Positions 354-16,931 of a DNA stretch of 64,000 nt are shown here, one piece after another. Each line of letters begins with the position of its first letter. Within the stretch, counting starts at the first letter, position 1. Below the pieces are notes generated by a model. It worked only from the letters and a program-made list of their open reading frames with translations. It was not told the DNA's origin and searched no databases. Source of the stretch: Candidatus Caenarcanales bacterium (lineage in GTDB: Bacteria; Cyanobacteriota; Vampirovibrionia; LMEP-6097); the NCBI GenBank assembly GCA_013216135.1, contig JABSOS010000016.1, forward strand, positions 6,718-70,717, given 5' to 3'. The translations under genes were made by a program, and so were the position numbers.

Positions 354-1625
354 ATGCCTTCTAATATTAATACTATAGACACCACTTGGATTCTAGTTTC
401 TAGTTCTTTTGTCTTCTTTATGATAATTGGGCTTGCCTTTTTCTATTCAGGTTTAGTTCGTAAGAAAAATGCTCTAAATACCATGATGATGAGTTTTATT
501 CCGATGGGGATAGTAACTATCACTTGGGCGTTATTTGGTTATAGCCTCGCCTACAGTGATGGAAACCTTTTCATCGGTGGCTTTGAAAACTTTTTTTTAA
601 ATGGTATAAATCTTGAAGCCACAGAAGATGGTGGCATTCCTATCATTTTAGATTTTATCTTCCAAGGAACCTTTGCGATTATTACAGCAGCTCTTATTAG
701 TGGCGCTGTAGTAGAAAGAATTCATTTTAGAGCGTATATGTTTTTCATATTCCTCTGGAGTATTTTAATCTATGCCCCTATGGCTAAATGGGTCTGGGGT
801 GATGGTTTATTCGAGCATCTTCCTACTGGGGCTGCTTTAGACTTCGCTGGTGGAACAGTAGTTCATATAAATGCTGCCATTAGTGCAGTAGTACTTTCAT
901 TTTTTATAGGTAGAAGAAAAGATGTCGGAAGACTAGCTATGCTGCCACACCAGGTACCATTAACTCTTTTAGGGGCTGGTATTCTATGGTTTGGCTGGTT
1001 TGGCTTCAATGGCGGTAGCGCCTACGCAGCTAACGCGCAAGCAGCTTTAGCTATGGCAAATACTCTACTAGCTCCAGCTGGAGCTATAGTATGCTGGGCA
1101 ATCTTAGATTGCATTTACACGAAGCGAGTTACAGCTGTAGGTTTAGCAACCTCTGTAATAGTAGGGCTAGTAGCAATCACTCCAGGAGCAGGTTTAATGT
1201 CGCCTAGCTCAGCTATTATCATCGGTATAATAACAAGCATCCCTTGCTTCTATATGATCATGTGGCGCTCAAGAACAGCTTTTGATGATTCGTTAGATGT
1301 CTTCGGCGCTCATGGACTTGGTGGAATAGTAGGTTCTTTGCTTACTGGTTTATTTGTCAGCACAGCTTGGGGCTCAGAAGTAGATGGAAGTTACATGCAA
1401 TTCCTGACTCAACTCATAGCAGTAATCATCGCAATAGCTTATAGCGCTGTAGGAACATATCTCATAGCCTCACTTGTGAACTACATCATTCCTATGAGAG
1501 TAGAAGAAAGTGATGAAAAATTAGGTTTAGACATCACTATGCATGGTGAGGAAGCTTATTCTGATGGTGAAGGAGCTTTACTAATTTTAGAGAAAACAGA
1601 AAAGGTCTTAAATGAAGTTAATTAG
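354..1625 (+). CDS. amt: ammonium transporter, Amt/MEP family
   Basis: 423 aa polytopic membrane protein; Amt signature region 'DFAGGTVVHINAAISAVVLSFFIGRR'; stop overlaps start of the P-II gene. Confidence 0.9.
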   Translation: MPSNINTIDTTWILVSSSFVFFMIIGLAFFYSGLVRKKNALNTMMMSFIPMGIVTITWALFGYSLAYSDGNLFIGGFENFFLNGINLEATEDGGIPIILDFIFQGTFAIITAALISGAVVERIHFRAYMFFIFLWSILIYAPMAKWVWGDGLFEHLPTGAALDFAGGTVVHINAAISAVVLSFFIGRRKDVGRLAMLPHQVPLTLLGAGILWFGWFGFNGGSAYAANAQAALAMANTLLAPAGAIVCWAILDCIYTKRVTAVGLATSVIVGLVAITPGAGLMSPSSAIIIGIITSIPCFYMIMWRSRTAFDDSLDVFGAHGLGGIVGSLLTGLFVSTAWGSEVDGSYMQFLTQLIAVIIAIAYSAVGTYLIASLVNYIIPMRVEESDEKLGLDITMHGEEAYSDGEGALLILEKTEKVLNEVN

Positions 1626-1959
1626 TGCAATTATTAGAAAAGAAAAGTTAAATGATGTTTTAGAAGCGTTATTTAATGTAGAGGTTCAGGGTCTTACCGT
1701 ATCTAAAGTAACTGGACACGGTGGAGAAACTGAAAAGATCGAAACTTATAGAGGAACCACAGTTAAAGTAGGTTTAACTGAAAAAGTAAAAATCGAAATC
1801 GGAGTCTCTGATAATTTTCAAGATACAGCTGTACAAGCGATTTTAAAATCAGCAAAGACAGGAGAAGTCGGCGACGGAAAAATCTTCGTCATGCCGATAG
1901 AAAAAGTTTACAGAATTAGAACTGGTGAAGAAGACGAAGAGGCTGTTACACCTAGATAA
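1612..1959 (+). CDS. glnK: nitrogen regulatory protein P-II (GlnK/NrgB-like)
   Basis: 115 aa; P-II fold motifs, T-loop 'GHGGETEKIETYRGTT' with Tyr; amt-glnK order as in B. subtilis nrgAB. Confidence 0.85.
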   Translation: MKLISAIIRKEKLNDVLEALFNVEVQGLTVSKVTGHGGETEKIETYRGTTVKVGLTEKVKIEIGVSDNFQDTAVQAILKSAKTGEVGDGKIFVMPIEKVYRIRTGEEDEEAVTPR

Positions 1960-1961
1960 AT

Positions 1962-2837
1962 CTACGAATTAATATTATCGTGAAGCTTCGCTAAAACATA
2001 ATCAGCAAAAGATTTTATTGCTTTTGATTTAGTTTGTTTCATTAATAATGCGATATGAGTATCTTCAAGCTTAGGAAGCTCACTTAAATTACAAATTTCT
2101 AAGCCACTAGGGATCATATTTTTAGGTAAAACTGTAATTCCAAGCCCTGCTTTTACAGCTGCAGTCGAGCCAATATAACTTGGGCTAGAGTATACGATCT
2201 TAGATTTAATGTTACTTTCATTTAAAGCCTTTAGGGCTCTTGCCCTATAAACACAAGGCTTCGGTGATAACACTAGGGGCAAAGCCCCTTCTTTTCTTTG
2301 AAAGCCTTTAGCAGCTACCCAAACTAATTTTTCAGACCAAATCTCGACACCATTTGGAAAATCATTTAAATCGTCTAACTTCACTAAAACTAAATCAAAC
2401 TTATTTTTCTTAAAGCTAGCAAGCAAATTTAAAGTTAAGTCACACTCTACGTTAACTGAAATCCTAGGATGATTAAAAGTAAAATCAGCAAGTATATCTT
2501 GCAAGTACAGAGTCGCAAAATCTTCAGGTAAACCAAAGGATAGTTCCCCCTCTAATTCTGGTTCTAGGAAATAATCTAATGCTTCTTGTTCGATTAATAC
2601 GATCTGCTTTGCATATCTCAAGAGGTTTTCACCTGCATCAGTTAAAGAGTTATTCTTGTGTCTATTAAGCAATTGTACCTTTAGATTCTTTTCCAGCCTT
2701 GAAATTTGCTGAGAAAGAGCAGACTGAGTAATACTGATTTTATTTGCAGCTTTTGTAAAACTACCTTCTTCTGCTACTGCAATAAAACATTTCAAATTAC
2801 CAATTTCTAAACTGGACATATTATTATCATACCCCAA
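1962..2837 (-). CDS. LysR-family transcriptional regulator
   Basis: N-terminal HTH 'FIAVAEEGSFTKAANKISITQSALSQQISRLE', LysR substrate-binding C-domain; true start probably the internal Met (MSSLEIGNL...); divergent from the dab pair. Confidence 0.8.
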   Translation of the reverse strand: MGYDNNMSSLEIGNLKCFIAVAEEGSFTKAANKISITQSALSQQISRLEKNLKVQLLNRHKNNSLTDAGENLLRYAKQIVLIEQEALDYFLEPELEGELSFGLPEDFATLYLQDILADFTFNHPRISVNVECDLTLNLLASFKKNKFDLVLVKLDDLNDFPNGVEIWSEKLVWVAAKGFQRKEGALPLVLSPKPCVYRARALKALNESNIKSKIVYSSPSYIGSTAAVKAGLGITVLPKNMIPSGLEICNLSELPKLEDTHIALLMKQTKSKAIKSFADYVLAKLHDNINS

Positions 2838-2881
2838 TATTAGTAAAACTAATTACTTCTGCAAGCCCCAAATCTTTACTT

Positions 2882-4282
2882 ATGATTAAAGATTCAATTC
2901 TTATTGTGATTTTCCCTAAAATAGGGAATAATTATAGGATGGACACCCCAATATTTCAGATAAATACACTTGGCTTAAGTCTAACCATACTAATTTTATT
3001 TGTGGGGTTTATCGTTATTCAGTTTTCAAAAAACTACCTTAGTGGCGATACATTATATAAAGCTTATTTTATAAGACTATTTGCCTTAATTATATCTGCC
3101 TGCCTTCTAGTTAATACAGATAACTTGATTGCCTTCTGTCTTTTCTTTGCATTAACAAATGCTTTGCTAACTTTACTCATGGTTCATAAAAGTCAGTGGA
3201 AAGCAGCACTCGAATCAGGAATTGTGGCAGCAAGAAATTTTGGGGTGGGAATTGTATGCCTTTTAGGCTTTAGTATTATCGTATATTCATTTACTGGTGA
3301 ACTGAGTATCAGTAAATTAAACCAAGTGTTTAGCTCAGTCCCAGGAATATACCAAATAGTAGCCCTTAGTTTAATCTGCATAGCAGCTTTAACTCAATCA
3401 GCATTATTTCCATTTCATGGTTGGCTTATATCATCGATGAACTCACCAACTCCTGTCTCAGCTCTTATGCATGCAGGAATAGTAAATGGTGGTGGCTTTC
3501 TTTTAGTTAAGCTAAGCCCAATGCTCCTTGAAAATCCAGTATTCTTACCGATCCTAAGTTTCATAGGAGCTTTAAGTGCTTTTCTAGCAATGCTTTGGGC
3601 ATTTACAAAAAATACAGTGAAAGCGACTTTAGTCTGTTCAACAGTTTCTCAAATGAGCTTTATGGTTCTTCAAATCGGTTTAGGTTTATTTCCTGCAGCA
3701 ATAAGTCACCTAATCATGCACGGCTTATTTAAAGCATTTCACTTTCTAGCAGCAGGTTCTGGAATTCAAATCAAGCGTCCAGCAAAGTTAAATTTAAATT
3801 TCCAAGAAAAAACGATTTATCTTTTAGTCGCTATGGCTTTTTCATATGTATCAATAAACCTTTTCTCTATTGCAGCTCACATCCCAATTAACTTCTATGA
3901 TAGTTCAATCATTTTGTTTGCTTTCATCTTCATGGCGTTAACTCAGCTAAGTATTAGCATACTTACAAGTAGCAAAAACTTTTTAGTTCCATTCTTTGCT
4001 TTCTTTGTATCTATCTCTGCAGCTGTACTCTACGGTGCATTCATCCATTTCTTTGAATTAATACTTGCAAGTAGTGTTCATATGCATACATATGCAGTTC
4101 ATTTACCTCAGTGGTTACTATTAAGTCCATTTGCAGTTTTATGGCTTGCGATGAATTATAAAGAGGATATACTTTACCTACTTCCAGAGGAAATCCACTT
4201 AAGAATCTATGCATTCTTGAAGAATACTTCTATGAGTAAAGAAGTTACTAATACTAGTGTTAGAGGGGAATACGCTAATTAA
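2882..4282 (+). CDS. dabB: NuoL/MnhA-type proton-translocating membrane subunit (DabB/MpsA-like)
   Basis: about 14 TM, complex-I antiporter-like (PF00361-type) sequence; immediately upstream of the DUF2309 gene; start likely the downstream Met at 2939 (MDTPIFQ...). Confidence 0.7.
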   Translation: MIKDSILIVIFPKIGNNYRMDTPIFQINTLGLSLTILILFVGFIVIQFSKNYLSGDTLYKAYFIRLFALIISACLLVNTDNLIAFCLFFALTNALLTLLMVHKSQWKAALESGIVAARNFGVGIVCLLGFSIIVYSFTGELSISKLNQVFSSVPGIYQIVALSLICIAALTQSALFPFHGWLISSMNSPTPVSALMHAGIVNGGGFLLVKLSPMLLENPVFLPILSFIGALSAFLAMLWAFTKNTVKATLVCSTVSQMSFMVLQIGLGLFPAAISHLIMHGLFKAFHFLAAGSGIQIKRPAKLNLNFQEKTIYLLVAMAFSYVSINLFSIAAHIPINFYDSSIILFAFIFMALTQLSISILTSSKNFLVPFFAFFVSISAAVLYGAFIHFFELILASSVHMHTYAVHLPQWLLLSPFAVLWLAMNYKEDILYLLPEEIHLRIYAFLKNTSMSKEVTNTSVRGEYAN

Positions 4283-4306
4283 GCATAATAAAAAAGGCAA
4301 TTAATT

Positions 4307-6955
4307 ATGATCACAAGTTTAAAAGACCAAGAATCTCTAAAAGATACCATCAATAATGTTTATAAAAGCTTCGATGATAAGAAGTTTACAGGAAATATGA
4401 TAAAAGCCTTTGTGGCAAATGCCTTTGAGGTAGTTAATACAAACTGGTCATTAAAAAGTTTCATAGCAATCAATCCACTAAAAGGGTTTGAAGATGAACA
4501 TTTTTTCGAAGCTACTAAGTCAGCTGCAAAATATTTCAGCGCTCAATCATTTTTCCCCATTGAAAAATACTATGAACTTCTGGATAAAGGTGAAATTAGC
4601 CGTGAGTATTTATTAGAAATTATTGAAAAAGAATTTAATGAAACAGGTATGTCTTTGATTTTCCTTCAGATGCTAGAAGATAAGCTTATAAAAGAGCCTC
4701 ACGTAAATTTCAAAAAAATATACCCTTACTCTCAGCATATTAATAATGGTAGAGTTCTCGATAAAGTAAATAACTACATGAACTACCTTTGCGCCGCTTA
4801 CTTTGATGAAAGTCAAGCCACGTGGGAATTACCAAACCGAGATAAAGGATTCTATACTTGTTGGAAAAAGCTTGGACCTTTTGATGATAAGTTAAGCAAG
4901 AACTCTAAAATCAAATCCTGGATGAGATTACTACCGGATTCAGCAGAAAAGACTTTAGTCGTAGGTTTAGAAACACTAGGTTTAAAGCAGAGCGACTGGA
5001 ATGAATATCTAAAATCAAATTTATGTTGTCAAAGCGGCTGGGCGAGCTTCATTAAATGGAGAGATATCAATAGTGAAAATAAAGACTTTAAATACAAGAT
5101 CAGTATGACTGATTTTTTAGCTGTTCGTTTAATCGTCGAAATCATTTACCTATTTGACTATCTAAACTTCAAAGATAAAGATGGTTTAAATGACTTTGAA
5201 GAATTTGAAGCACAGATCCTGAAAAAGCTTTTAGCAGAGCAAAACGATCAGATTGAAAAAAACCTTGAAGAAAGTTCAACGAATGAAGTAAGGGAAAATG
5301 AAGAAAAGATATCTACTCTTATTGAAAAAAACAACTTAGATTCTAAAGACCCAGATATCAAAAACACTCTTGAGAGATTCTCGGAAAAAGCTAGCTACCT
5401 TATGCAATGTGCATGGGAACTTACCGAGCATAAAAACTTACTTGAACATATATCAGCCAATCATGAAATGATGAACTTTAGTTCATCAAAGAAAAAACGT
5501 TCACTTGCACAAATGATTTTTTGTATCGATGTCAGATCGGAAGGAATTAGAAGATCAATAGAGAGTGTCGCTAATGTAGAAACACTTGGTTTTGCAGGAT
5601 TCTTCGGCTTACCTATCAGTTATAAAACCCATAAAGATACTAATCCTCAAGCTGCCTGTCCAGTTTTAATAACTCCAAATCATGAAGTACACGAGCACGT
5701 TCACCCTAAGAGTGCTGAAAAATTTATAGACTTTCAAATTAACCAAAGAATCTCAGAGCTTGTCTATAAAGCTTATAAAGCTCAGAAAAACAATGTAGCA
5801 GCAGCTTTCATCTTCGCTGAAGCATCTGGTTTAATTTATTTAGGTTTAATGTTATTAAAAACAATTACCCTGAAATTAAAAGTAGGAATAGAAAAACTTT
5901 TCTTTAAAGATAAAACTAAAGTTTACTTTGACCCTAATATTGACCTAAGTCCTACTAATGAGCACGGTCTTTCAAGAAAAGAGCAAGCCTTCTTTGCCGA
6001 AACAGCTTTAAGACTTATGGGGCTTACAGATAACTTCAGTGAGTTCATTCTCTTTACTGGACACGGCAGCCAAACAGAGAACAACCCTTATGCATCAGCT
6101 TTAGACTGTGGCGCCTGCGCTGGACAGCATGGTGGGTCAAATGCTAAGACTTTAGCAAAAGTACTCAACAACCCAGAAATCAGAAGATCTATAGCTGAAA
6201 ATGGAATTCAAATTCCAAATGATACTGTCTTTATCGGTGCGGAGCATAATACGACAACAGATGAAATCGAGATCTATGATATTGAGATTACAGATAAAGA
6301 AAACGTAGCCAAGCTAAAAGAATTAAAAACAAATTTAAAAATCGCAGCAAAGCTTAATAGAGCATCCAGAAATAGTTATGAAGAATATGATGTAACTGAC
6401 GCTGCGATACTTGCAAAATCTATCGATTGGTCTGAAACACGTCCTGAATGGGGACTTGCAGGGAACATGGCTTTTGTTATCGGTCCTAGAGAGCTTACGA
6501 AAGGAAATAATTTATCAAACCGTGTATTTATGCACTCCTATAGACAGGAATCTGATCCTGAAGGAGCTTTACTAGAAACCATAATGGGTGGTCCTATGGT
6601 AGTTACCCAGTGGATTAATAATCAATACTACTTCTCAAGTATGGACATTAAAAACTTTGGTAGTGGGAGTAAAATTACTCACAATATAGTTGGTGACTTA
6701 GGTGTACTTCAAGGAAACATGAGTGATCTCTTTACTGGTTTAAGCTTACAGTCTGTGTTTATGAATGATGAAGAGCTTTTTCATAAGCCTTTAAGATTAA
6801 GAGTTGTAATTCACGCTCCAAAAGAAAGAGTCAAAAAAATCTTAACTAGAAATCAGAATCTTACAGCACTTTTCACAAATCAATGGATTTATCTAAGCAT
6901 AATTGAACCAGAAACAGGTAATATTATTAATGTTGACAATATAGATAATATATAA
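4307..6955 (+). CDS. dabA: DUF2309 protein, DabA/MpsB-like inorganic carbon transporter subunit
   Basis: 882 aa; beta-carbonic-anhydrase-like CxDxR 'FCIDVRSE' and 'HGSQ...LDCGACAGQHGG' metal-site motifs typical of DabA; paired with the NuoL-like gene. Confidence 0.8.
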   Translation: MITSLKDQESLKDTINNVYKSFDDKKFTGNMIKAFVANAFEVVNTNWSLKSFIAINPLKGFEDEHFFEATKSAAKYFSAQSFFPIEKYYELLDKGEISREYLLEIIEKEFNETGMSLIFLQMLEDKLIKEPHVNFKKIYPYSQHINNGRVLDKVNNYMNYLCAAYFDESQATWELPNRDKGFYTCWKKLGPFDDKLSKNSKIKSWMRLLPDSAEKTLVVGLETLGLKQSDWNEYLKSNLCCQSGWASFIKWRDINSENKDFKYKISMTDFLAVRLIVEIIYLFDYLNFKDKDGLNDFEEFEAQILKKLLAEQNDQIEKNLEESSTNEVRENEEKISTLIEKNNLDSKDPDIKNTLERFSEKASYLMQCAWELTEHKNLLEHISANHEMMNFSSSKKKRSLAQMIFCIDVRSEGIRRSIESVANVETLGFAGFFGLPISYKTHKDTNPQAACPVLITPNHEVHEHVHPKSAEKFIDFQINQRISELVYKAYKAQKNNVAAAFIFAEASGLIYLGLMLLKTITLKLKVGIEKLFFKDKTKVYFDPNIDLSPTNEHGLSRKEQAFFAETALRLMGLTDNFSEFILFTGHGSQTENNPYASALDCGACAGQHGGSNAKTLAKVLNNPEIRRSIAENGIQIPNDTVFIGAEHNTTTDEIEIYDIEITDKENVAKLKELKTNLKIAAKLNRASRNSYEEYDVTDAAILAKSIDWSETRPEWGLAGNMAFVIGPRELTKGNNLSNRVFMHSYRQESDPEGALLETIMGGPMVVTQWINNQYYFSSMDIKNFGSGSKITHNIVGDLGVLQGNMSDLFTGLSLQSVFMNDEELFHKPLRLRVVIHAPKERVKKILTRNQNLTALFTNQWIYLSIIEPETGNIINVDNIDNI

Positions 6956-8644: not shown

Positions 8645-9769
8645 ATGGAAACTCAAGCTTTAGAGGCAATACAAAAAGTAGATCTAAGAAAAAAATCAAA
8701 TTTAGTACCTAATAAAAAGCCTTTAGTGAAAAAAGCACAAACTAGTAAAATATGGCAACCACCCCCTCAAGTAAAAATAGCTCTAATAAATTTCAGCCCT
8801 CTTTCACTTCCTGAAGTTAATGGTCAGGATAAAGATTACGAGCTAAGTAAAGCGGAAAGAATGAAATTCATATCCTTTACCTCTTCTTTAAATTTAAACC
8901 AGCAGCAAACCTCAAAACTTACCCCTGAAACCAAGAAAAATATTGCAATATTTGCAAATTCAGGAATCACTGAAAAGCATTTAAATACAATCAAACACTA
9001 TACAACTAGTTTAAATGGAGATAGAACCCCTCTTTATAATTTCCTAGATAGTATCCGTAAAAATCCACAACATGCAAAAAAAAGAGTGGAGAAATTAATG
9101 GAAGTTCAAAATAAAATAAATGGCTTTAAAAATATTCAAGAAGATAAAATTCTAAATCCCTTAAAGCAAAACTACTTTAGCGAAAAAAGTAACATAGACC
9201 AGGATGCTTTTTGGCTTTCAGTATTTAAGATTAGTTACCTTGATGTTCATAATCCAGATTATCTGAAACCAAACGTCATTGAAGCTCTCAACTTAATTGC
9301 TCCAAAGCCAGGAGAACTTCAAACTTACTCCTACATTCAAGACATATATTCTCACCCTCATAATGCAATTTTAGAAAGAAAAGATGAAAACACATTAATC
9401 ATTTCAGAAAAAGATTTTGAAAATAATCTAAAAAATAGTCTCACTAAAAATGTAATAAATAATGGCAATACCGATGTAACTTATGAAATTGATCTTAAAA
9501 CTGGTAAAGTTACAGAAATTGAAAATCTAAGCACTGATATAAATGGAAACCCTGTAGATGATGAGGTAGTAAGTTCTGCCCTTAAAATTGTAATGGATGT
9601 TTTAGGTGGGTTACCAGTAACTAGAGCTAAGGGTCCTTTCATTGAAACTATTACTGAATCTTCAAAAAGCACACAATACATTCTAGAAGAAGGACTGAAA
9701 GATAATCAATTAAAAGCTTTAGCTAAAGTATTAGAGAATAATCTACTTGAACCAGTTTATAGTTTGTAA
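8645..9769 (+). CDS. hypothetical protein (lineage-specific, effector-like)
   Basis: 374 aa ORF with AG-rich RBS; no recognisable motif. Confidence 0.5.
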   Translation: METQALEAIQKVDLRKKSNLVPNKKPLVKKAQTSKIWQPPPQVKIALINFSPLSLPEVNGQDKDYELSKAERMKFISFTSSLNLNQQQTSKLTPETKKNIAIFANSGITEKHLNTIKHYTTSLNGDRTPLYNFLDSIRKNPQHAKKRVEKLMEVQNKINGFKNIQEDKILNPLKQNYFSEKSNIDQDAFWLSVFKISYLDVHNPDYLKPNVIEALNLIAPKPGELQTYSYIQDIYSHPHNAILERKDENTLIISEKDFENNLKNSLTKNVINNGNTDVTYEIDLKTGKVTEIENLSTDINGNPVDDEVVSSALKIVMDVLGGLPVTRAKGPFIETITESSKSTQYILEEGLKDNQLKALAKVLENNLLEPVYSL

Positions 9770-9829
9770 GTAAAACTTCAATAATCTTTGAACCTATGAT
9801 TATTACAAACTCATAATAATAATTTCACT

Positions 9830-10531
9830 CTATGATGAAGAAAAAGTCAACACTGATAAATCTTCATTTAGTTCTTTTAACAGATTTTGCAAAGCAGGTT
9901 CAATTTCGTGAACATCGCTACTATCAAAATAATTATCATCATTGCTAGTTATAGATAGCTGATAAGGCTTACCTTTGTCTGTGACCGTTAACAATAATTT
10001 AAAGTTATAACCTCTAAACTCAAGCTTCCCAGTATAATTAGACATTCCAACTTGATCTTCTCTATTATTTAAATCATCTTGAACAATATTTCTAAACTCC
10101 CACTTATCAAAGGAAGTAAGAGCTTGTTTCAATTCAGTAGCAATGGTACTTGAATCATTCTTATCATCTTTAGCTTCAGAAAGTTGATTTAAATTACCGA
10201 TCGCTTCCCAAGATGGCATCAAATGTTGAGTAATTTGTTCAATAGAACTCTTTAAAGCATTAATCCCTTTATCTAAAGTTTCCTGAACAAAATTCATATC
10301 TATCCTCTTATCAGTATCAAGAGTAGGAATGTTTGCTTGCGGGGATTGAGTAATGAGTTCTTGCTCACGGTTTGATAGTGCAGAAGCAATTTCTCTTGCT
10401 CCAGGTAATAAATAGTTTTCAATTTCTTTCCCAATAGCATTATCAATTCTTGCTTTTGTTACTCTTTCAAGAGTAGTTGGAGGTGAATAAGGAGTGATGA
10501 GCGAAGACACGTTAATACAGTAGCAGCGCAA
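9830..10531 (-). CDS. hypothetical protein
   Basis: 233 aa ORF, no recognisable motif. Confidence 0.45.
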   Translation of the reverse strand: MRCYCINVSSLITPYSPPTTLERVTKARIDNAIGKEIENYLLPGAREIASALSNREQELITQSPQANIPTLDTDKRIDMNFVQETLDKGINALKSSIEQITQHLMPSWEAIGNLNQLSEAKDDKNDSSTIATELKQALTSFDKWEFRNIVQDDLNNREDQVGMSNYTGKLEFRGYNFKLLLTVTDKGKPYQLSITSNDDNYFDSSDVHEIEPALQNLLKELNEDLSVLTFSSS

Positions 10532-10561
10532 GTATTATCTTGTCAACGAGGGCGAAAAATA

Positions 10562-10591
10562 TTAAATAAAAAAGCGCCCCTTCGGGGCGCT
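10562..10591 (-). terminator. rho-independent terminator (AGCGCCCC-TTC-GGGGCGCT hairpin plus T-run on the minus strand)
   Basis: perfect 8-bp GC-rich stem at 10573-10591; the minus-strand reading is followed by TTTTTTATTT; lies 3' of the 10629-11273 gene. Confidence 0.7.
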
Positions 10592-10628
10592 CCACACACA
10601 AAATCTTACGCCAGGAAAGGCTTAGAAA

Positions 10629-11273
10629 CTAAACATCTTTAATCAGACGAGTAGCATGATAATCGTTATACAAAGAAGTATCTTTTGTTTTAACGAAATC
10701 CATAACCGTGTCCAACTCTTCATTCAAGATTTCATTTGCTTGCTCAAAGATCTCTGTAAGCTCTTGTCTTGCAGCTTTGCTCTGCCCGAATTTAGCATCT
10801 TTAGAATCAGAAGCGTTTTCGTAGTCATCTATCTTCATCTGTAAATCTTTTAAGATATCTCTTTCTAAGCCAAATTTATTTAATTTCTGAAGATTCTCCT
10901 CAACCAAGACTGCAATAGCCTTTGCTTTTTGCAAAAGGTCAGCATCTCTCATTTTCTTAAGCCCACTATTTGTAAGCCTAGTCATAATCTTCAGCTGTTC
11001 ATCATCATTTCTTCGAGCGAAGATATGAACCACACCAGCTACAGCAAGCAAAGCATCGATCAAATCATCTTCTGCCTTCTCTTTAGTCGCTGCCGCTCCT
11101 TCAGAAACTAATTTATATTTATTGTCGACCTCTGGGATTTCCTTTAGTAATTTCTGGAAATCTTTAAACACTAATGAAAGCGCGGGAGTTGAACTCACCG
11201 TTTCTTTACTTTCAAGAAGCACTTCCTCAACAGCTTTAAACATTACGTATCTGTTTTTCTCTTTTCTATCCAC
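10629..11273 (-). CDS. hypothetical protein (helical, charged)
   Basis: 214 aa ORF; divergent from the respiratory operon. Confidence 0.5.
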   Translation of the reverse strand: MDRKEKNRYVMFKAVEEVLLESKETVSSTPALSLVFKDFQKLLKEIPEVDNKYKLVSEGAAATKEKAEDDLIDALLAVAGVVHIFARRNDDEQLKIMTRLTNSGLKKMRDADLLQKAKAIAVLVEENLQKLNKFGLERDILKDLQMKIDDYENASDSKDAKFGQSKAARQELTEIFEQANEILNEELDTVMDFVKTKDTSLYNDYHATRLIKDV

Positions 11274-11367
11274 ACAAAACTCCTTCTACAAATATTGGAT
11301 TTCATTTTCTTTTAAGATTTTAGTCTTTTTCCAAAAAAAGATCATGATTTCTTAAGTTTTTTTGCAA

Positions 11368-11461
11368 ATTTCGTCACTTTGGATGACTATTTCGCGACTA
11401 AACTGAGTCATTTCGTGACAAAAGACATCAATTTCTCGACTTGAGATACCAATTTCTCCAC
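11368..11461. promoter_or_regulatory. five direct repeats ATTTC(G/T)(T/C)(G/C)AC phased at exactly 21 bp (starts 11368, 11389, 11410, 11431, 11452)
   Basis: read directly: ATTTCGTCAC / ATTTCGCGAC / ATTTCGTGAC / ATTTCTCGAC / ATTTCTCCAC; sits between divergent genes just upstream of a -10-like TACAAT and the 11531 start. Confidence 0.6.
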
Positions 11462-11530
11462 TTAATCCTTAGAAATATCTAAAGTAAAAAATGTTTTACG
11501 GAGTTACAATCATTCTTAAGGATAGTTTCT

Positions 11531-12628
11531 ATGGATCCGATAGCAAATATAGTTCCAAATTACCAAGATTTACCATTCCCAGCACCACTCTGGCTACTCC
11601 AAATACTCTTAATCGTCGGTTTTTTCACACATGTAGTGCCGATGAACGTAGCTTTAGCAGGTGGAGCGGTCTCAAGTATACTTTTAGGTAATAAAGAAGG
11701 TAGCTATGCCCATAAAGCTGGACGTCAGCTTGCATTTTCGCTGCCATTCTTCACTTCTTTAGCTATAACACAGGGTATAGTGCCTTTACTTTTCCTTCAA
11801 TTAATATATGGACCAGCTTTTTATAGCTCGTCTATATTAATGGCAGTGCCTTGGATTTTGATTTTAGTATTTTTATTAATAGGTTATTACGCTCAGTATA
11901 TTTATAAGTTCAAGGGTGAAAAATTTGGTAAAGCTGCACCTATCTTCTTAGTAATTTCAAGCTTCCTATTTTTAATAATCGCTTTTATTTTTGTTAATAA
12001 TATGACGCTAATGCTTAATCCTAATGAGTGGTTAGAACTAGCGAAAAAAGGAACTAGTGGTATTAATCTAAATTTAAATGATCCACAAATCATCCCTAGA
12101 TTTTTACACTTTGCAATTTCTTCTATCGCAATCACCGGTATCGCTTTAGGTGGCTTTGGTCTTTACTATCAGAAAAAAGATAAGGACTACGCTCACTGGT
12201 TATATAAGACAGGATCAGGAATCTATGCTGCTGTAACTCTTTTACAGTTAGGCTTCGGTACTTGGTTTATGCTTTCCTTACCTTTAGAAAGAGCGATACT
12301 TTTCATTAAAGGCGGTGGACTCGCTACAGCTTCATTCCATAGCTCAATGTTATTCATGATAGTTTCACTAGTATTTTCAGTTTTAGTTCTAATTAAACCT
12401 AGCAAAGCTAAATTCATCGGTGCTTTAATCAGTTCACTAGTAACAGTTTTACTCATGATAGTAATGAGACACTTCCTTAGAGTCTGGAGTCTAGAAGGAG
12501 CCTTAGATCCAGGAATAGTTCCAGTTCAAATTCAATGGGATTGGTTAGTAATATTCGGTGTTCTAACTATAGGTGTAATTTTTTATATAGGTTGGTTAAT
12601 TAAAATTTGTCTAAAGGCAAATAAGTAA
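11531..12628 (+). CDS. cytochrome bd subunit-I-like (CydA-like) membrane protein, divergent and truncated paralog
   Basis: 365 aa polytopic; aligns by eye to the N-terminal region of the 14464 protein and to CydA (TM1 His, '...NNMTLMLNPNEW' vs '...NGILSFMLTPGNW'); lacks the conserved Glu pair. Confidence 0.5.
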   Translation: MDPIANIVPNYQDLPFPAPLWLLQILLIVGFFTHVVPMNVALAGGAVSSILLGNKEGSYAHKAGRQLAFSLPFFTSLAITQGIVPLLFLQLIYGPAFYSSSILMAVPWILILVFLLIGYYAQYIYKFKGEKFGKAAPIFLVISSFLFLIIAFIFVNNMTLMLNPNEWLELAKKGTSGINLNLNDPQIIPRFLHFAISSIAITGIALGGFGLYYQKKDKDYAHWLYKTGSGIYAAVTLLQLGFGTWFMLSLPLERAILFIKGGGLATASFHSSMLFMIVSLVFSVLVLIKPSKAKFIGALISSLVTVLLMIVMRHFLRVWSLEGALDPGIVPVQIQWDWLVIFGVLTIGVIFYIGWLIKICLKANK

Positions 12629-12639
12629 GAGGTTTTGAG

Positions 12640-13086
12640 ATGATAGCAGGCACAAGAAGAGTTTTTGTTAGATGGATAACTGGAGTTTTTGCTGCTCTAT
12701 GGGCAGGGATGGCAAGTTACCCTTTCTTTAGATATTTAATTTCAGGTACTAAGAAAAAACAAGCAGGTGAAGAATTAGTAACCTCAATTTCACTTGGGAG
12801 CTCTGAAGAGTTTTTACCGGGAGCTTCTAAGAATTTCAAATTTGGTTCTGCTCCTGCTCTATTAGTAAGATCAGAAGATGGTGCTTTTCACGCTTATAAT
12901 GCTATCTGCACTCACTTAGGCTGTACAGTTCAATACAATGAAGAGAAAAAGAACATCTGGTGCGCTTGTCATGGTGGTGTCTATGACACAGCTTCAGGTA
13001 AAAACTTAGCTGGACCTCCACCTAAGCCATTAAAGGCTCTAAACGTGGAAGTTAAAGAGGGAGAGATTATTGTTTCAAGGGCATAG
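12640..13086 (+). CDS. petA: Rieske [2Fe-2S] protein
   Basis: 'CTHLGC' and 'CACHGG' Rieske boxes; Tat-like 'GTRRVFV' N-terminus plus TM anchor. Confidence 0.85.
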   Translation: MIAGTRRVFVRWITGVFAALWAGMASYPFFRYLISGTKKKQAGEELVTSISLGSSEEFLPGASKNFKFGSAPALLVRSEDGAFHAYNAICTHLGCTVQYNEEKKNIWCACHGGVYDTASGKNLAGPPPKPLKALNVEVKEGEIIVSRA

Positions 13087-13112
13087 AAAAACAAAGAACT
13101 TAGGCAATTTCT

Positions 13113-13216
13113 CAAATTCAAGGCTTTTGAGGATGAAAAAGCGCAGTGTAATGGAATTACATGAGCATTTTGAAGACGAGAATAACGCAGAAGTTGAGAA
13201 AGTGAGTAAGTTCTAA
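13113..13216 (+). repeat. intergenic module, copy 1 (Rieske / cyt b spacer)
   Basis: about 75-80% nucleotide identity to 14345-14450 (CAA[A/G]TTCAAGGCTT ... TTTTGAAG.[C/G]GAG.ATAACGCAGAA.TTG.G.AAGTGAGTAAG). Confidence 0.6.
13133..13216 (+). CDS. possible 27-aa small ORF inside the duplicated intergenic module (MKKRSVMELHEHFEDENNAEVEKVSKF)
   Basis: ATG-to-TAA ORF; its C-terminal half is conserved with the sORF at 14306; could instead be a structured RNA. Confidence 0.25.
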   Translation: MKKRSVMELHEHFEDENNAEVEKVSKF

Positions 13217-13220
13217 AAAG

Positions 13221-14306
13221 GTGTATAGTATGAGTTTAACGAGTTCCGACAACAAATTTTATAGCTGGCTTGATGATAGGGTTGGGGTTTCTGGCTTTAT
13301 TAAAGCAGCTGAGAAAAAAGAAGTTCCAGTTCATAAGCAAAGCATGTGGTATTACATGGGTGGAATTGCCATGGTATTACTTGCAATTCAAGGCTTAACT
13401 GGAATCTTATTAATGGTTTACTATGTACCAGAAATAAGTTCTGCACACTCATCTGTTTTATTTATTAATACTCAGATTGAATTTGGTTGGTTTGTAAGAT
13501 CACTTCATAGCTGGGCTGCAAATATTTTGATTTTCATTTTATTTGTGCACATGTTTAGTGCTTACTTTATGAAAGCTTATAGAAAGCCACGTGAAGTAAC
13601 CTGGTTCAGTGGTATGGCACTTTTAGGAATTTGCTTTGCTTTCGGTTTTACTGGTTACCTTTTACCATGGGATGAAATCGCTTTCTTCGCAACTAAAATA
13701 GGTTTAGACATCGCTGGTAAAACACCTTTCATCGGTGGCGTAATCGCTGACTTATTAAGAGGTGGTGCAGAGATCGGTCAAGGAACTATCTCTAGATTCT
13801 TTTTAATTCACGTTATTTTATTACCGATAGCATTATTTGCTGTTGCTGGTTTGCACCTACTTTTAGTTCAACTTCACGGTATGTCTGAACCAGAGAGTTT
13901 TAAGAAAGCTAAGAAAAAGAAATATGAAAAATTCTTCCCAGACTTTTTAGTAAAAGATTTTATGGTTTGGTTATTTTTCTTTAACTTAGTTGCAGGAATA
14001 GTAGCACTCTTCCCTTGGGGCTTAGGTCCAGAAGCTGATCCATTTGCTCCAGCTCCAGCTGGTATTAAACCAGAATGGTATTTTCTTGCTATGTTCCAAT
14101 TCTTAAAACTTCTTCCTCCTCACATCGGACCTTTTGAAGGAGAGATTTTAGGGATAGCATTCTTTGGAGTTTTAGCGTTAGTGCTTTTCGTTGCACCATT
14201 TATAGATACAGGTAAAAGTAAAGCTGTGAGTAAATTCTTTGATGTCTATGGAATTCTGTTCACTATAGGATTTGTTGGCTTTACTGTTTGGGGGATGCTT
14301 GATTAA
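13221..14306 (+). CDS. petB: cytochrome b, b6-type (b6 and subunit IV fused)
   Basis: His pairs in helices B ('HSWAANILIFILFVH') and D ('IHVILL...GLHLLL'); 'PEWYFL' motif; ATG at 13230 may be the real start. Confidence 0.85.
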   Translation: MYSMSLTSSDNKFYSWLDDRVGVSGFIKAAEKKEVPVHKQSMWYYMGGIAMVLLAIQGLTGILLMVYYVPEISSAHSSVLFINTQIEFGWFVRSLHSWAANILIFILFVHMFSAYFMKAYRKPREVTWFSGMALLGICFAFGFTGYLLPWDEIAFFATKIGLDIAGKTPFIGGVIADLLRGGAEIGQGTISRFFLIHVILLPIALFAVAGLHLLLVQLHGMSEPESFKKAKKKKYEKFFPDFLVKDFMVWLFFFNLVAGIVALFPWGLGPEADPFAPAPAGIKPEWYFLAMFQFLKLLPPHIGPFEGEILGIAFFGVLALVLFVAPFIDTGKSKAVSKFFDVYGILFTIGFVGFTVWGMLD

Positions 14307-14467
14307 TGAAACCTTTTGATAAAACTAGGGCTTGCGCACTTGCACAAGTTCAAGGCTTGCGAAAGCTGAAAAACCGCAGTTTACTTTTTGTAAATGAGGA
14401 TTTTGAAGCTGAGCATAACGCAGAAATTGGGCAAGTGAGTAAGCCCTATGAGGAGTTTGAATTATGA
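14306..14467 (+). CDS. 53-aa small ORF in intergenic module copy 2, translationally coupled on both sides
   Basis: ATG overlaps the cyt b stop (TAATG); its TGA overlaps the next ATG (ATGA); the C-terminus '...EDFEAEHNAEIGQVSK' is conserved with the 13133 sORF. Confidence 0.4.
   Translation: MKPFDKTRACALAQVQGLRKLKNRSLLFVNEDFEAEHNAEIGQVSKPYEEFEL
14345..14450 (+). repeat. intergenic module, copy 2 (cyt b / CydA-cyt c spacer)
   Basis: paralogous to 13113-13216; a small hairpin at the equivalent position carries compensatory changes (TGTAAT..ATTACA vs TTTAC..GTAAA). Confidence 0.6.
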
Positions 14468-15828
14468 ATTACCCTGTTTGGAGTATACCGGGAATAGGCG
14501 GATCATGGTTAGTAGGATTAATCTCTGTTATCCACGTCTTCTTGTCACACTTTGCAGTCGGTGGTGGAATTTTCTTCGCTATCACTGAATGGATCGCTTA
14601 TAAGCGTGGTGATGACAGAATTTACCAATATCTAAAGAAACACTCTAAGTTTTTCTTACTTGCAACCACAGTTGCTGGTGCAGTAACAGGTGTCGGGATT
14701 TGGTTCTCTATTAGTTTAGTAAGTCCTGATGGTACTGGTACTTTAATCCAAAATTACACACTTGGGTGGGCGACTGAATATCTATTCTTCTTAACTGAGA
14801 TTGCGACAGTATTTGTCTATTACTATACTTGGGATAAAATCTCTAAAGAAACTCACTTAACTTTAGCTAGATGGTATGCAGTTTTATCAGTGTTCACACT
14901 AGTAATTATTAATGGAATCCTTTCATTTATGCTTACTCCAGGAAACTGGGTCGAGTCTAAGTTATGGTACGAAGGTTTCTTTAACCCTACTTACTGGCCT
15001 TCTCTATTCTTAAGAATCTTTGTAATGCTTGCGATAGCAGGAATGTATTCTTTAGTAACTTCAGCTAGAATTAAGAATAAAGACTATAAAGAATTAAAAG
15101 TTAAAAACCCTGATCCAGAGCATAAGAACGAAGATGACTTTAGAGCGTACATGCTTAAATACTCTTCTAAGTGGTTCTTCCCTGTTTTCGTTTTAGGTCC
15201 AGTATTTGGTTTCTGGTTCTTCTCACAAGTCCCAGGAAATGTACTCGATAACATCTTCAATGGTATTCAGGCTTCTGGAGTTGGAAACTTCTCTATACTA
15301 GCGAGAGCCATTTACCTAAGTTTAATTCTTTCTGGAACTATACTTATCTTCGCTTATATCGGACCATACTTAAACCCGAGAGGTTTCTCTTTTATAGCAG
15401 CTTTAGCCTTTATGGTTTGTGGTCTAGGTGTAACTGCTATTTCAGAGTGGTCTCGTGAAATGCTGAGAAAACCTTACGTAATCTATGGTTACATGTACTC
15501 AAATGGTATTAAAGTCTCAGACGTCGATAAGATAAATGAAGAGGGCTTTTTAGCCCATTCTAAATGGCGACCAGCAGATAATGAAAGTCCAGGCGAGTTT
15601 ATCTTTAAGCAACAATGCATGAAGTGTCACACTACAGATGGATATAGAAGTATGACTAGATTGCTTGGTGAAAGAGATAAAGATGCTATTAAAGGTTTCC
15701 TAACTCTTATGCATGAAACAGATATTGAAAAGAATTCATATCTGAAAATTATGCCACCGTTTGTTGGGACTAATGAAGAGATAGATATGCTTGCTTCTTA
15801 CCTGAGTACTTTAAATAAGAATAAATAG
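14464..15828 (+). CDS. CydA-like (cytochrome bd subunit I family) membrane domain fused to a C-terminal mono-heme cytochrome c
   Basis: by-eye alignment to E. coli CydA: TM1 His, 'AITE' (Glu), 'IYQYLKKHSKFF' vs 'IYKDMTKFWGKLF', 'AGAVTGVGIWF' vs 'LGVATGLTMEF', 'ATEY/LTEI' vs the Glu99/Glu107 region, 'TWDKI' vs 'GWDRL', 'NG..MLTPGNW' vs 'NGWMQNP'; C-terminal 'CMKCH' heme site and 'MPPF' Met-ligand region. Confidence 0.7.
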   Translation: MNYPVWSIPGIGGSWLVGLISVIHVFLSHFAVGGGIFFAITEWIAYKRGDDRIYQYLKKHSKFFLLATTVAGAVTGVGIWFSISLVSPDGTGTLIQNYTLGWATEYLFFLTEIATVFVYYYTWDKISKETHLTLARWYAVLSVFTLVIINGILSFMLTPGNWVESKLWYEGFFNPTYWPSLFLRIFVMLAIAGMYSLVTSARIKNKDYKELKVKNPDPEHKNEDDFRAYMLKYSSKWFFPVFVLGPVFGFWFFSQVPGNVLDNIFNGIQASGVGNFSILARAIYLSLILSGTILIFAYIGPYLNPRGFSFIAALAFMVCGLGVTAISEWSREMLRKPYVIYGYMYSNGIKVSDVDKINEEGFLAHSKWRPADNESPGEFIFKQQCMKCHTTDGYRSMTRLLGERDKDAIKGFLTLMHETDIEKNSYLKIMPPFVGTNEEIDMLASYLSTLNKNK

Positions 15829-15869
15829 CACCTTGGCATTATCTTAACCGAAGTGCTAGTATATCTTTT

Positions 15870-16931
15870 GTGTCACTAAGAAGAATTAATCCTTTTTCAC
15901 AAAAGACCATAACTCAAGAAGAAAGAAGGAAGCTCATTGAACAAGATAAGCTAATACCTCTTAGACAAGGGGTTTCTTTAAAAAGATCTTTAATTAATCT
16001 AAAATTATTAGCACTAGATGAACAGATAGAAGCCCCAGAAAGTCATAAACATTTAGGTTATTTGAAATCTATAACTGGAATCAATACCGAAAATAAGGAT
16101 CTCTGGAAGAAACTAGGTATCTATGAAAAAAATAAGATCAAAACATATTTCATTAATAATTTATCTCAAAAAGAACTATTAACTTTAAAGGAAATTTTTA
16201 ATACGGTCTATAAACACAAGAAGCATGCGGTTTGGCATTTTTTTTCACTTATATTAAATGATAAAAACGACACTATAAAAAATAAAATTAAAGCATTTGA
16301 AAGAACCAAAGAAAAAGAACTGGAACACAAAAAGCTTTCTTCAGAAATCTTAAATTTAGTGAATAATAAATTTAATTTAAACTTATCTCAATTTGAATAT
16401 CATTTACTAGATCCTTTTAGAGGAGAAGGAAATAAAATTAACAGATCACACAGAGAAATATTAAAACTAATAAAACCTCAGCACCCCGTTGTTGAAAAGA
16501 AATTTTCATTTTTAATTCCTTACTATAAACATAATCACCAAGTAACAGTAAGAAGTTCACCAGGTACTAATAAATTAAGATTCAAAGTAAGAGATTTAGA
16601 AACTAATCTTCAGCATTATTTCTTCAAGACACCAGACCGTGATGAATCCTTAGATTATATATTTGATATAGACTTAGAAACTGGTGATTTTGATATAGTT
16701 GAAGACAACTCAGCTAAAGTTAAAAAGCCAAAAAGTGATCGAGAAAAAATTGGTTTAGCAATGAGTTTCATATTTAGAACTTTACATGGTGGTTATTCCC
16801 CTGGACTGGGGCAAGGTCCCGTAATTTCGGAAAAGGATATAGACGGAAATGTTAATCACCGACAAACTCTTTATACTGGACTAAATGATAATGAAATCGA
16901 AGCATTAGGCATTCTTGGTGAACTTGCTTAA
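15870..16931 (+). CDS. hypothetical protein (lineage-specific, effector-like)
   Basis: 353 aa ORF, K/N-rich, no recognisable motif. Confidence 0.45.
   Translation: MSLRRINPFSQKTITQEERRKLIEQDKLIPLRQGVSLKRSLINLKLLALDEQIEAPESHKHLGYLKSITGINTENKDLWKKLGIYEKNKIKTYFINNLSQKELLTLKEIFNTVYKHKKHAVWHFFSLILNDKNDTIKNKIKAFERTKEKELEHKKLSSEILNLVNNKFNLNLSQFEYHLLDPFRGEGNKINRSHREILKLIKPQHPVVEKKFSFLIPYYKHNHQVTVRSSPGTNKLRFKVRDLETNLQHYFFKTPDRDESLDYIFDIDLETGDFDIVEDNSAKVKKPKSDREKIGLAMSFIFRTLHGGYSPGLGQGPVISEKDIDGNVNHRQTLYTGLNDNEIEALGILGELA

Follow-up and report, generated by a model that had tools for sequence, protein, structure and literature searches.

A 64,000-nucleotide stretch of DNA from Candidatus Caenarcanales bacterium (contig JABSOS010000016.1 of assembly GCA_013216135.1, forward-strand positions 6,718 to 70,717; hereafter the window) carries an operon of four genes, p1 to p4. 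The operon encodes a Rieske protein (p2) and a cytochrome b (p3) between two proteins related to CydA, subunit I of cytochrome bd. One of the latter, p4, is fused to a cytochrome c. Our analysis indicates that the operon probably specifies a single four-subunit respiratory assembly of the membrane, a quinol:O2 oxidoreductase in which the heme c of p4 replaces cytochrome c1/f. The operon is widespread and not peculiar to this genome. Its host is a member of the Vampirovibrionia (Melainabacteria), a class that does not photosynthesise and is sister to the oxygenic cyanobacteria. An original prediction, made from the DNA letters without database searches, had drawn attention to the locus. All four open reading frames (ORFs) were recovered on the + strand at exactly the coordinates given there.

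Conservation of the operon and natural gene fusions

A scan of one genome per species recovered at least 566 stretches encoding relatives of p4, and the neighbourhoods of the best 80 were examined. The gene order p1-Rieske-cytochrome b-p4 was found in 68 of the 80 loci. Six further loci are cut by a contig end and are compatible with the same order. In the other six, p1 and p4 are adjacent and the Rieske and cytochrome b (pet) genes are absent; the order is p1-p4 (L005 and L047), p4-p1 (L074, L075 and L077) or p4-p4-p1 (L080). The reverse order, p4-p1, occurs in Kryptonia, Bacteroidota and Ignavibacteria. Hence, p1 and p4 were together in every sufficiently complete locus, with or without pet genes, as expected for a heterodimer. 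When all ORFs of the 80 loci were clustered, no conserved fifth gene emerged. The next-largest clusters after the operon genes were shadow ORFs overlapping the operon itself.

The related loci cover at least 10 phyla. Besides Vampirovibrionia, the full operon is carried, at 40-45% p4 identity, by Planctomycetota, Armatimonadota, Verrucomicrobiota, Acidobacteriota, Fibrobacterota, Omnitrophota, Hydrogenedentota and Sumerlaeia. The nearest loci belong to metagenome-assembled genomes (MAGs) of Melainabacteria (L001, 98% identity) and Caenarcanales (L002, 92%; isolate name ALOHA_ZT_4). Named relatives scoring best for p1 and p4 were Caenarcaniphilales, Vampirovibrio and Obscuribacter. The cultured acidobacterium Geothrix rubra (L055) has the full operon. 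Chthonomonas, Fimbriimonas, Chthoniobacter and Fimbriiglobus appear among the carriers as MAG labels only.

In some genomes the p1 and Rieske genes are joined. Two members of the p1 family, P0382 (554 aa) and P0393 (556 aa), consist of a full p1-like domain of nine transmembrane (TM) helices followed by a Rieske anchor and a Rieske domain. The cluster of P0382, with 27 member sequences, is represented on well over 100 contigs, labelled Verrucomicrobiota, and so is not an accident of assembly; the P0393 fusion is independent of it. Since the C-terminus of p1 is predicted to lie inside after TM9, the fused Rieske anchor would cross outward and the cluster domain would be periplasmic. On the 5.7-kb contig L081, which is of Verrucomicrobiota type, positions 2472-5506 comprise a p1::Rieske fusion gene and, directly after it, a p4-like gene with CMICH and MPP; no cytochrome b gene was found on the contig. 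This arrangement suggests that the Rieske protein of that lineage has a closer tie to the bd-like module than it has to cytochrome b. Taken together, the conserved gene order and the p1::Rieske fusions argue for a single complex.

An apparent fusion of p4 and p1, P0467 (807 aa), was rejected as Rosetta-stone evidence. An Arg-rich junction replaces its cytochrome c end, in the manner of a frameshift-like read-through.

Three further observations concern individual loci. Two full operon copies are present in each of two MAGs (L008 and L022 in DATNPJ01; L044 and L056 in CAVYWD01), which suggests paralogous complexes in some organisms. The pet genes seem to have been lost or moved recently in the Caenarcaniphilales-like loci L005 and L047 (~70% p4 identity), which have p1 and p4 only; L003, L004 and L006, of the same identity, retain the complete set of four. 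Finally, Vampirovibrionia-like operons (58-71% p4 identity; L003, L008/L022, L010, L023 and L027) occur on contigs whose record titles name, for example, Proteobacteria, Gammaproteobacteria, Coleofasciculaceae and Flavobacterium psychrophilum, and the contig with an operon of 42% identity (L060) bears the title 'uncultured archaeon'. Mislabelling or misbinning of these MAG contigs is the probable cause.

The p4 protein resembles the catalytic subunit of OR-C enzymes

In Pfam searches p4 matched Cyt_bd_oxida_I (PF01654) above the cut-off (4.5e-13; 49 bits against 26.2), as had been anticipated. The match is confined to residues 16-201, which correspond to profile positions 5-197 of 418. The original prediction held that the N-terminal 330 residues align to CydA residue by residue. 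This is so for residues ~16-201 and for a motif at 328-345; for the remainder the likeness is one of fold only. The C-terminal part has the heme c motifs CMKCH (385-389) and MPPF (430-433), although its Pfam matches were weak and below cut-off (PF13442, 2.6e-4; PF00034, 0.016). The proposed class-I mono-heme cytochrome c is nonetheless supported by conservation. Among 82 homologues, which span at least 10 phyla, C385, C388 and H389 are invariant, and M430, the probable sixth heme c ligand, is present in 81. The model of p4 has eight TM helices with both termini outside. The heme c domain is therefore predicted to be periplasmic.

In the membrane domain, H24, W80, E105, E112, Y119, H131, N150, R184, E328, R331, E332, R335, K336 and P337 are invariant in the same 82 sequences. 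We regard H24, the pair E105/E112, H131 and the motif from E328 to P337 as the key residues. Such a set shows the constraint typical of a catalytic site. In a narrower alignment of 27 Vampirovibrionia sequences, H131 was the sole invariant His besides that of CxxCH, and H24, H29 and H60 were nearly so.

The positions of these residues correct two details of the original prediction. Residue H24 matches H19 of Escherichia coli CydA. This TM1 His ligates the active-site heme, which is heme d in E. coli and heme b595 in Geobacillus (Murali et al., 2021, supplement). It had been taken for a ligand of heme b558. In fact, p4 has no counterpart of the b558 ligands H186/M393 or of the Q-loop, and the quinol site is absent. 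Similarly, E105 and E112 had been placed in a periplasmic loop; they match the proton-channel pair E99/E107 of E. coli, which lies in a membrane helix.

The second active-site ligand is less easily placed. Residues 329-345 of p4 (WSREMLRKPYVIYGYMY) were aligned by HMMER, as a second domain, with residues 375-391 of Geobacillus CydA (YLAEVGRQPWILRGYMK). The alignment, which alone is not significant, puts E332 on E378 (E378-V-G-R-Q-P-W), a ligand of the active-site heme. If E332 is the equivalent of E378, both active-site heme ligands would be retained and the fused heme c would replace b558.

Murali, Gennis and Hemp (2021) divided the bd superfamily into qOR, OR-C and OR-N enzymes. An OR-C enzyme is defined by a CydA of about eight TM helices that has no quinol site and ends in a periplasmic heme c portion. 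Next to OR-C1a lies the gene of a paralogue, OR-C1b; E99/E107 are present in the 'a' protein and not in the 'b' protein. The reference row for OR-C1a in their Supplementary Table 6 comprises H24, E105, E112, S145, H131, L153, Y119, Y121, V77, W80 and F183. At the same numbers p4 has the same residues with two substitutions, T145 and L183. According to the supplement, the Ser at 145 is 'sometimes a threonine'; Leu at 183 contrasts with the Phe of the reference. The first four TM helices and the H19-equivalent ligand of the CydA core are present in p4, and its Glu pair, with six residues between E105 and E112, has the shorter spacing of the qOR3 and OR-C types. Hence, by residue signature and architecture, p4 is assigned as an OR-C1a-type subunit, with a membrane domain of only ~334 residues. 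The original prediction therefore overstated the novelty of a bd module fused to cytochrome c, since the OR-C family had already been classified. Supplementary Table 3 of the same work lists OR-C in Cyanobacteria, Armatimonadota, Planctomycetota and Acidobacteriota.

The p1 protein is an unannotated CydA paralogue

No match to p1 was found in Pfam, NCBIfam or the PDB sequences, and BLASTP against p4 gave a marginal alignment (67 residues, E 0.012). Comparison of family profiles was more informative. The p1 and p4 profiles are co-linear over 265 columns (hhalign 96.6%, E 6.1e-10), from the TM1 His (H34 of p1 on H24 of p4) to an R-x-x-x-R motif past TM8. In its model p1 has nine TM helices with the N-terminus outside and the C-terminus inside, as in CydA and CydB. 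The description of p1 as CydA-like is thus upheld by profile-profile and fold comparison, and not by the Pfam search that had been proposed for the purpose. An NrfD/ActC/PsrC-type identity was rejected. The original prediction had named the NrfD/ActC family as the finding that would count against it; fold scores for that type were clearly below those for CydA.

The p1 protein retains the TM1 His and lacks the proton-channel Glu pair, as expected of OR-C1b, the CydA paralogue encoded with OR-C1a. Residues H34, Q90, Y98, W108, Y119, Y123, R190 and R313 are invariant among 73 homologues. At the position equivalent to E332 of p4 there is a His in Vampirovibrionia and an Asp in other phyla. Judged from these residues, p1 may bind heme itself, and its signature and architecture fit OR-C1b.

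We propose that p1 is the CydB-equivalent partner of p4, as in CydAA'-type enzymes. The original prediction had stated that there is no cydB. This holds in so far as PF02322 (CydB) had no match among the 34 window ORFs scanned (of 51 ORFs of at least 150 aa), and it overlooked p1 as a CydA paralogue in the CydB position.

The p1 family is large. It comprises ~1,700 clusters at 90% identity, and a profile search of 1.84 billion representatives gave 2,227 representatives at 50%. Among the matches listed, nearly all p1 family entries are named 'hypothetical protein' and have an empty precomputed Pfam column. The family is thus an annotation gap for a respiratory subunit.

The p2 and p3 proteins

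Both central proteins are what the original prediction took them to be. The p2 protein matched the Rieske family (PF00355, 4.9e-15). Its best NCBIfam model was the b6f iron-sulfur subunit (1.6e-20, under the cut-off). The cluster boxes are CTHLGC at residue 90 and CACH at residue 108, and none of the ligands C90, H92, C95, C108, C110 and H111 varies among 69 homologues. In box II the sequence is CACHGG and not the high-potential CPCHGS, which is consistent with a low-potential quinone pool. The Tat-like signal proposed for p2 is reasonable and not universal: in TRRVF, R6 is present in 68 of the 69 homologues and R7 in 40.

The p3 protein matched Cytochrome_B (PF00033, 3.6e-44) and Cytochrom_B_C (PF00032, 9.5e-10) in Pfam, and cytochrome b6 (7.7e-67) and subunit IV (5.1e-07) in NCBIfam. 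It is therefore a fusion of b6 and subunit IV. All of 71 homologues have the heme b ligands H96, H110, H197 and H212 and PEWY at 284-287. At position 46, the site of the heme-cn Cys in b6f, they have W, M, L, A or F and in no case Cys. A further residue, His38 (window 13332-13334), in the N-terminal cytoplasmic sequence VPVHKQ, is invariant in 71/71 homologues; it is not among the four canonical heme ligands.

Relation to known respiratory complexes

The closest resemblance of the bd-like subunits is to OR-C. Like those enzymes, p4 has eight TM helices, a C-terminal periplasmic CxxCH, no Q-loop or b558 site and the signature residues at the same numbers, and a paralogous 'b' subunit lacking the Glu pair is encoded nearby. 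The difference is that Rieske and cytochrome b genes here separate 'a' and 'b'. In addition, p1 has nine TM helices in the model, as opposed to eight for OR-C1b in Murali et al. (2021), and no heme c. Those authors proposed a soluble cytochrome c as the OR-C donor and named only the 'b' gene as a neighbour. Given that the pet genes lie between p1 and p4, quinol via the Rieske/cytochrome b pair is the likely donor here, not soluble cytochrome c.

Operons with petA, petB and petD were described for OR-N1 and OR-N5a/b (Murali et al., 2021). These systems, of Nitrospira, Nitrospina and Chloroflexota, likewise join Rieske and cytochrome b genes in one operon to a bd-type catalytic subunit that has no quinol site, which suggests an assembly of bc and bd modules fed by quinol. 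OR-N proteins differ in having 10-14 TM helices and other conserved residues and in lacking a fused heme c; p1 and p4 bear the OR-C signature. In CydAB (qOR1-3) and the archaeal CydAA' (qOR4a/4b) quinol is oxidised directly. The operon described here lacks what this requires, since the b558 ligands, the Q-loop, the direct quinol site and a PF02322-type CydB are all missing; the PF01654 match of p4 covers the first half of the profile, and electrons would enter p4 through its fused heme c.

The Rieske/cytochrome b pair resembles b6f and bc complexes in its standard Rieske ligands and in a b6-type cytochrome b with four His and PEWY. It differs in that b6 and subunit IV are fused, the heme-cn Cys is missing and there is no cytochrome f/c1. 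Actinobacterial bcc-aa3 is an obligate III-IV supercomplex without a soluble carrier. The assembly proposed here would follow the same logic with a bd-type instead of a heme-copper oxidase.

No description of an operon joining OR-C to Rieske and cytochrome b was found in the portions of the literature available, which do not include Figure 1 of Murali et al. (2021), nor is it mentioned in an account of bc-complex evolution (Dibrova et al., 2017). The one earlier mention found, a single sentence in a 2019 supplementary note, concerns a lone cydA beside a second cytochrome b6 gene set in a Melainabacteria genome. The combination thus appears to be undescribed, and analogous to the OR-N1 and OR-N5 operons.

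A model for electron transfer and its alternatives

In the model that we favour, p2 and p3 would oxidise quinol at the PEWY-type Qo site of p3. Menaquinol is presumably the quinol of this lineage. One electron would be recycled via hemes bL and bH, and the high-potential electron would pass from the [2Fe-2S] cluster to the mono-heme c of p4, the stand-in for cytochrome c1/f. From there it would reach the heme or hemes at H24/E332. The acceptor, most probably O2, would be reduced at that site (O2 to water), with protons supplied through E105/E112. The p1 protein would pair with p4 in the place that CydB takes beside CydA.

Several results bear on this scheme. A motif scan found no CxxCH in p1, p2 or p3. 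The claim that the operon contains no cytochrome c1 or other c-type partner is therefore sound, and the Rieske centre has no encoded acceptor other than the heme c of p4, the sole c-type cytochrome of the operon. The predicted topologies of p1 and p4 are compatible with one assembly, in which the Rieske cluster and heme c would both be periplasmic. The path first proposed, from Rieske/cytochrome b through the fused heme c into a bd-like module, is thus favoured by synteny, invariant residues and the p1::Rieske fusions, once its heme assignment, its statement on cydB and its claim to novelty are amended. The data show the identities and folds of the parts, their conserved residues and topology, the gene order and the fusions; that all four proteins associate physically, which way electrons flow, how many hemes of which kind p4 and p1 bind, and that O2 is the acceptor, we infer.

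Some observations weigh against the proposed quinol:O2 oxidoreductase. Reduction of O2 is deduced solely from homology to the bd active site. Support for the E332 assignment comes from a short local alignment that by itself falls short of significance, and the OR-C1a row in Supplementary Table 6 of Murali et al. (2021) contains no equivalent of E445. The p4 model is of moderate confidence (predicted local distance difference test (pLDDT) score 76.8, with low values at 267-290 and 335-341). The invariant H34 hints that p1 is perhaps not a passive CydB-like partner. The six loci with p1 and p4 only, and the Rieske gene without cytochrome b in L081, indicate that the modules can combine otherwise. 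A 2024 source still calls the composition and function of OR-C and OR-N enzymes unconfirmed.

The acceptor need not be O2. The bd-like module could reduce NO, H2O2 or another oxidant, or p4 and p1 could form an anchored substitute for cytochrome c1 that feeds soluble carriers and separate oxidases. Either is conceivable: among anaerobes, Desulfovibrionia for instance, OR-C enzymes occur commonly and have up to 8 hemes c (Murali et al., 2021), they are not known to have been assayed, some Melainabacteria additionally have cbb3-type and canonical bd oxidases, and canonical bd enzymes are described as acting also on NO and peroxide. We nevertheless consider another acceptor or a relay unlikely. 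Across phyla, H24, E105, E112 and the E332 motif are invariant; they belong to the heme ligand of the bd active site and to the proton path, and a mere anchor or relay would not need them. Furthermore, CydAA', the sole assayed relative of this kind, is an O2 reductase.

The operon might also encode two separate enzymes, a Rieske/cytochrome b complex and a cytochrome c-oxidising OR-C dimer, that are co-transcribed and linked by a carrier without forming a supercomplex. The loci with p1 and p4 alone, the p4-p1 order of other phyla and the soluble donor suggested for OR-C would all suit this arrangement. It is hard to reconcile with the position of the bd-like genes, which flank the pet genes in 68 of the 80 loci and form no block of their own, with an operon that offers the Rieske centre no cytochrome c1/f or other CxxCH acceptor, and with fusions that covalently join subunits of the bd and bc modules. 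We thus judge it improbable. An enzyme that runs in reverse, from a periplasmic donor to the quinone pool, or that has a non-respiratory role as redox sensor or protective O2 scavenger without energy conservation, seems very improbable indeed. Canonical bd oxidases are known to have protective roles, and nothing in the present results speaks specifically for one. Conversely, PEWY, the four heme b His and the Rieske ligands are invariant, as in a working Q-cycle enzyme; the carrier phyla are mostly heterotrophs, and the operon encodes no donor-oxidising enzyme.

The quinol:O2 oxidoreductase can also be stated in a bolder form, which we offer tentatively and with some doubt. Here, the operon would encode a widespread obligate 'bc-bd' supercomplex, in which Rieske reduces a heme c built into a bd-type O2 reductase. 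The p1 protein would bind heme through its TM1 His and the His or Asp at the E445-equivalent position. In Vampirovibrionia, the closest relatives of cyanobacteria that do not photosynthesise, a b6-type Rieske/cytochrome b complex coupled to a copper-free oxidase would then belong to the respiratory repertoire.

Implications

Should p1 to p4 prove to be one quinol:O2 oxidoreductase, it would represent a third mode of coupling complex III chemistry to O2 reduction. The other two are bc1 with soluble cytochrome c and a heme-copper oxidase, and the actinobacterial bcc-aa3 supercomplex. The new mode would use a copper-free, bd-type active site. In canonical bd oxidases this site combines high O2 affinity with cyanide tolerance. 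The operon is present in many little-studied phyla from soils, sediments, waters and bioreactors. Inventories limited to CydAB and heme-copper oxidases would then under-call aerobic or microaerobic capacity. Annotation adds to the problem, as the label 'cytochrome ubiquinol oxidase subunit I' given to p4 wrongly implies a direct quinol oxidase. For Vampirovibrionia, a b6-type Rieske/cytochrome b complex with an unusual partner joins the debate on respiration and b6f origins in the cyanobacterial lineage. A concrete and testable case for a copper-free bc-bd terminal oxidase can be made from the wide distribution of the operon, the p1 family that lacks annotation and the fusions seen in nature, and cultured carriers, of which Geothrix rubra is confirmed, bring such tests within reach.

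Gene layout, intergenic repeats and flanking genes

The features of the operon are collected in Table 1. The G+C content of the window is ~34%. A promoter scan returned 12 promoter-like sites, against 14.2 expected, and a terminator scan found none positioned to divide the operon. A search of positions 11200-16100 against Rfam gave no match. Heme-copper oxidase families had no match among the 34 window ORFs scanned.

Table 1. Features of the p1-p4 operon (window coordinates).
Feature	Position	Strand	Description
p1	11531..12628	+	365 aa; 9-TM CydA paralogue, OR-C1b-like; proposed CydB-equivalent of p4
p2	12640..13086	+	148 aa; Rieske [2Fe-2S] protein with N-terminal membrane anchor and twin-arginine-like TRRVF
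Repeat copy 1	13087..13220	+	Intergenic, hairpin-forming; 81% column identity to copy 2; encloses 27-aa ORF
p3	13221..14306	+	361 aa; 7 TM; cytochrome b6/subunit IV fusion with PEWY Qo motif, without heme-cn Cys
Repeat copy 2	14307..14463	+	Intergenic, hairpin-forming; minimum free energy -33.1 kcal/mol, z -2.2
p4, whole	14464..15828	+	454 aa; CydA-fold membrane domain and C-terminal cytochrome c
p4, membrane domain	14464..15465	+	Residues 1-334; 8 TM; CydA fold, predicted OR-C1a type
p4, cytochrome c domain	15514..15828	+	Residues ~351-454; predicted periplasmic; mono-heme, class-I-like

Two repeat copies of ~125 nt occupy both intergenic gaps around p3. Within the window their 29-nt core (ATAACGCAGAARTTGNGNAAGTGAGTAAG) is confined to these two sites; the expected count was 0. 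Both copies form a long hairpin with imperfect pairing, and compensatory changes distinguish their apical stems. The folding z scores were -2.2 for copy 2 and -3.5 for the copy of L002. In L002, reading of the sequence revealed copy 1 and no copy 2; in other Vampirovibrionia the genes abut. A fixed-spacing pattern search for the repeat in other loci found 0, and was defeated by a 1-nt indel. The 27-aa ORF of copy 1 (MKKRSVMELHEHFEDENNAEVEKVSKF; 13130-13213, +) has its first 18 codons identical in L002. In copy 2 the frame is not kept from the start, and the closing TGA of a similar frame for an acidic peptide overlaps the p4 ATG. The repeat may be a peptide gene, an RNA element or a mobile repeat.

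The ORFs adjoining the operon (8645-11273 and 15870-16931; 374, 233, 214 and 353 aa) are rich in Lys, Asn and Glu and have no Pfam match. By eye, the C-terminal features of 8645-9769 (GLKDNQLKALAKVLE) and 15870-16931 (GLNDNEIEALGILGE) are alike.

Two other parts of the window contain genes related to energy metabolism or transport. A solitary ATP-synt_A-like ORF lies on the - strand at 50955-51839, with genes on the same strand to either side, one for a cadherin-domain protein (49234-50853) and one for a member of the Na/Ca exchanger family (51880-52911). Among the window ORFs scanned there was no other ATP synthase gene. Near the start of the window are an ammonium transporter ORF (354-1625), a divergent LysR regulator (1962-2837, - strand) and a DabB/DabA pair (Proton_antipo_M at 2882-4282; DabA at 4307-6955, 4.9e-233). 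The gene set from 354 to 6955 may encode an energy-coupled system for the uptake of inorganic carbon, here in a relative of the cyanobacteria that does not photosynthesise.

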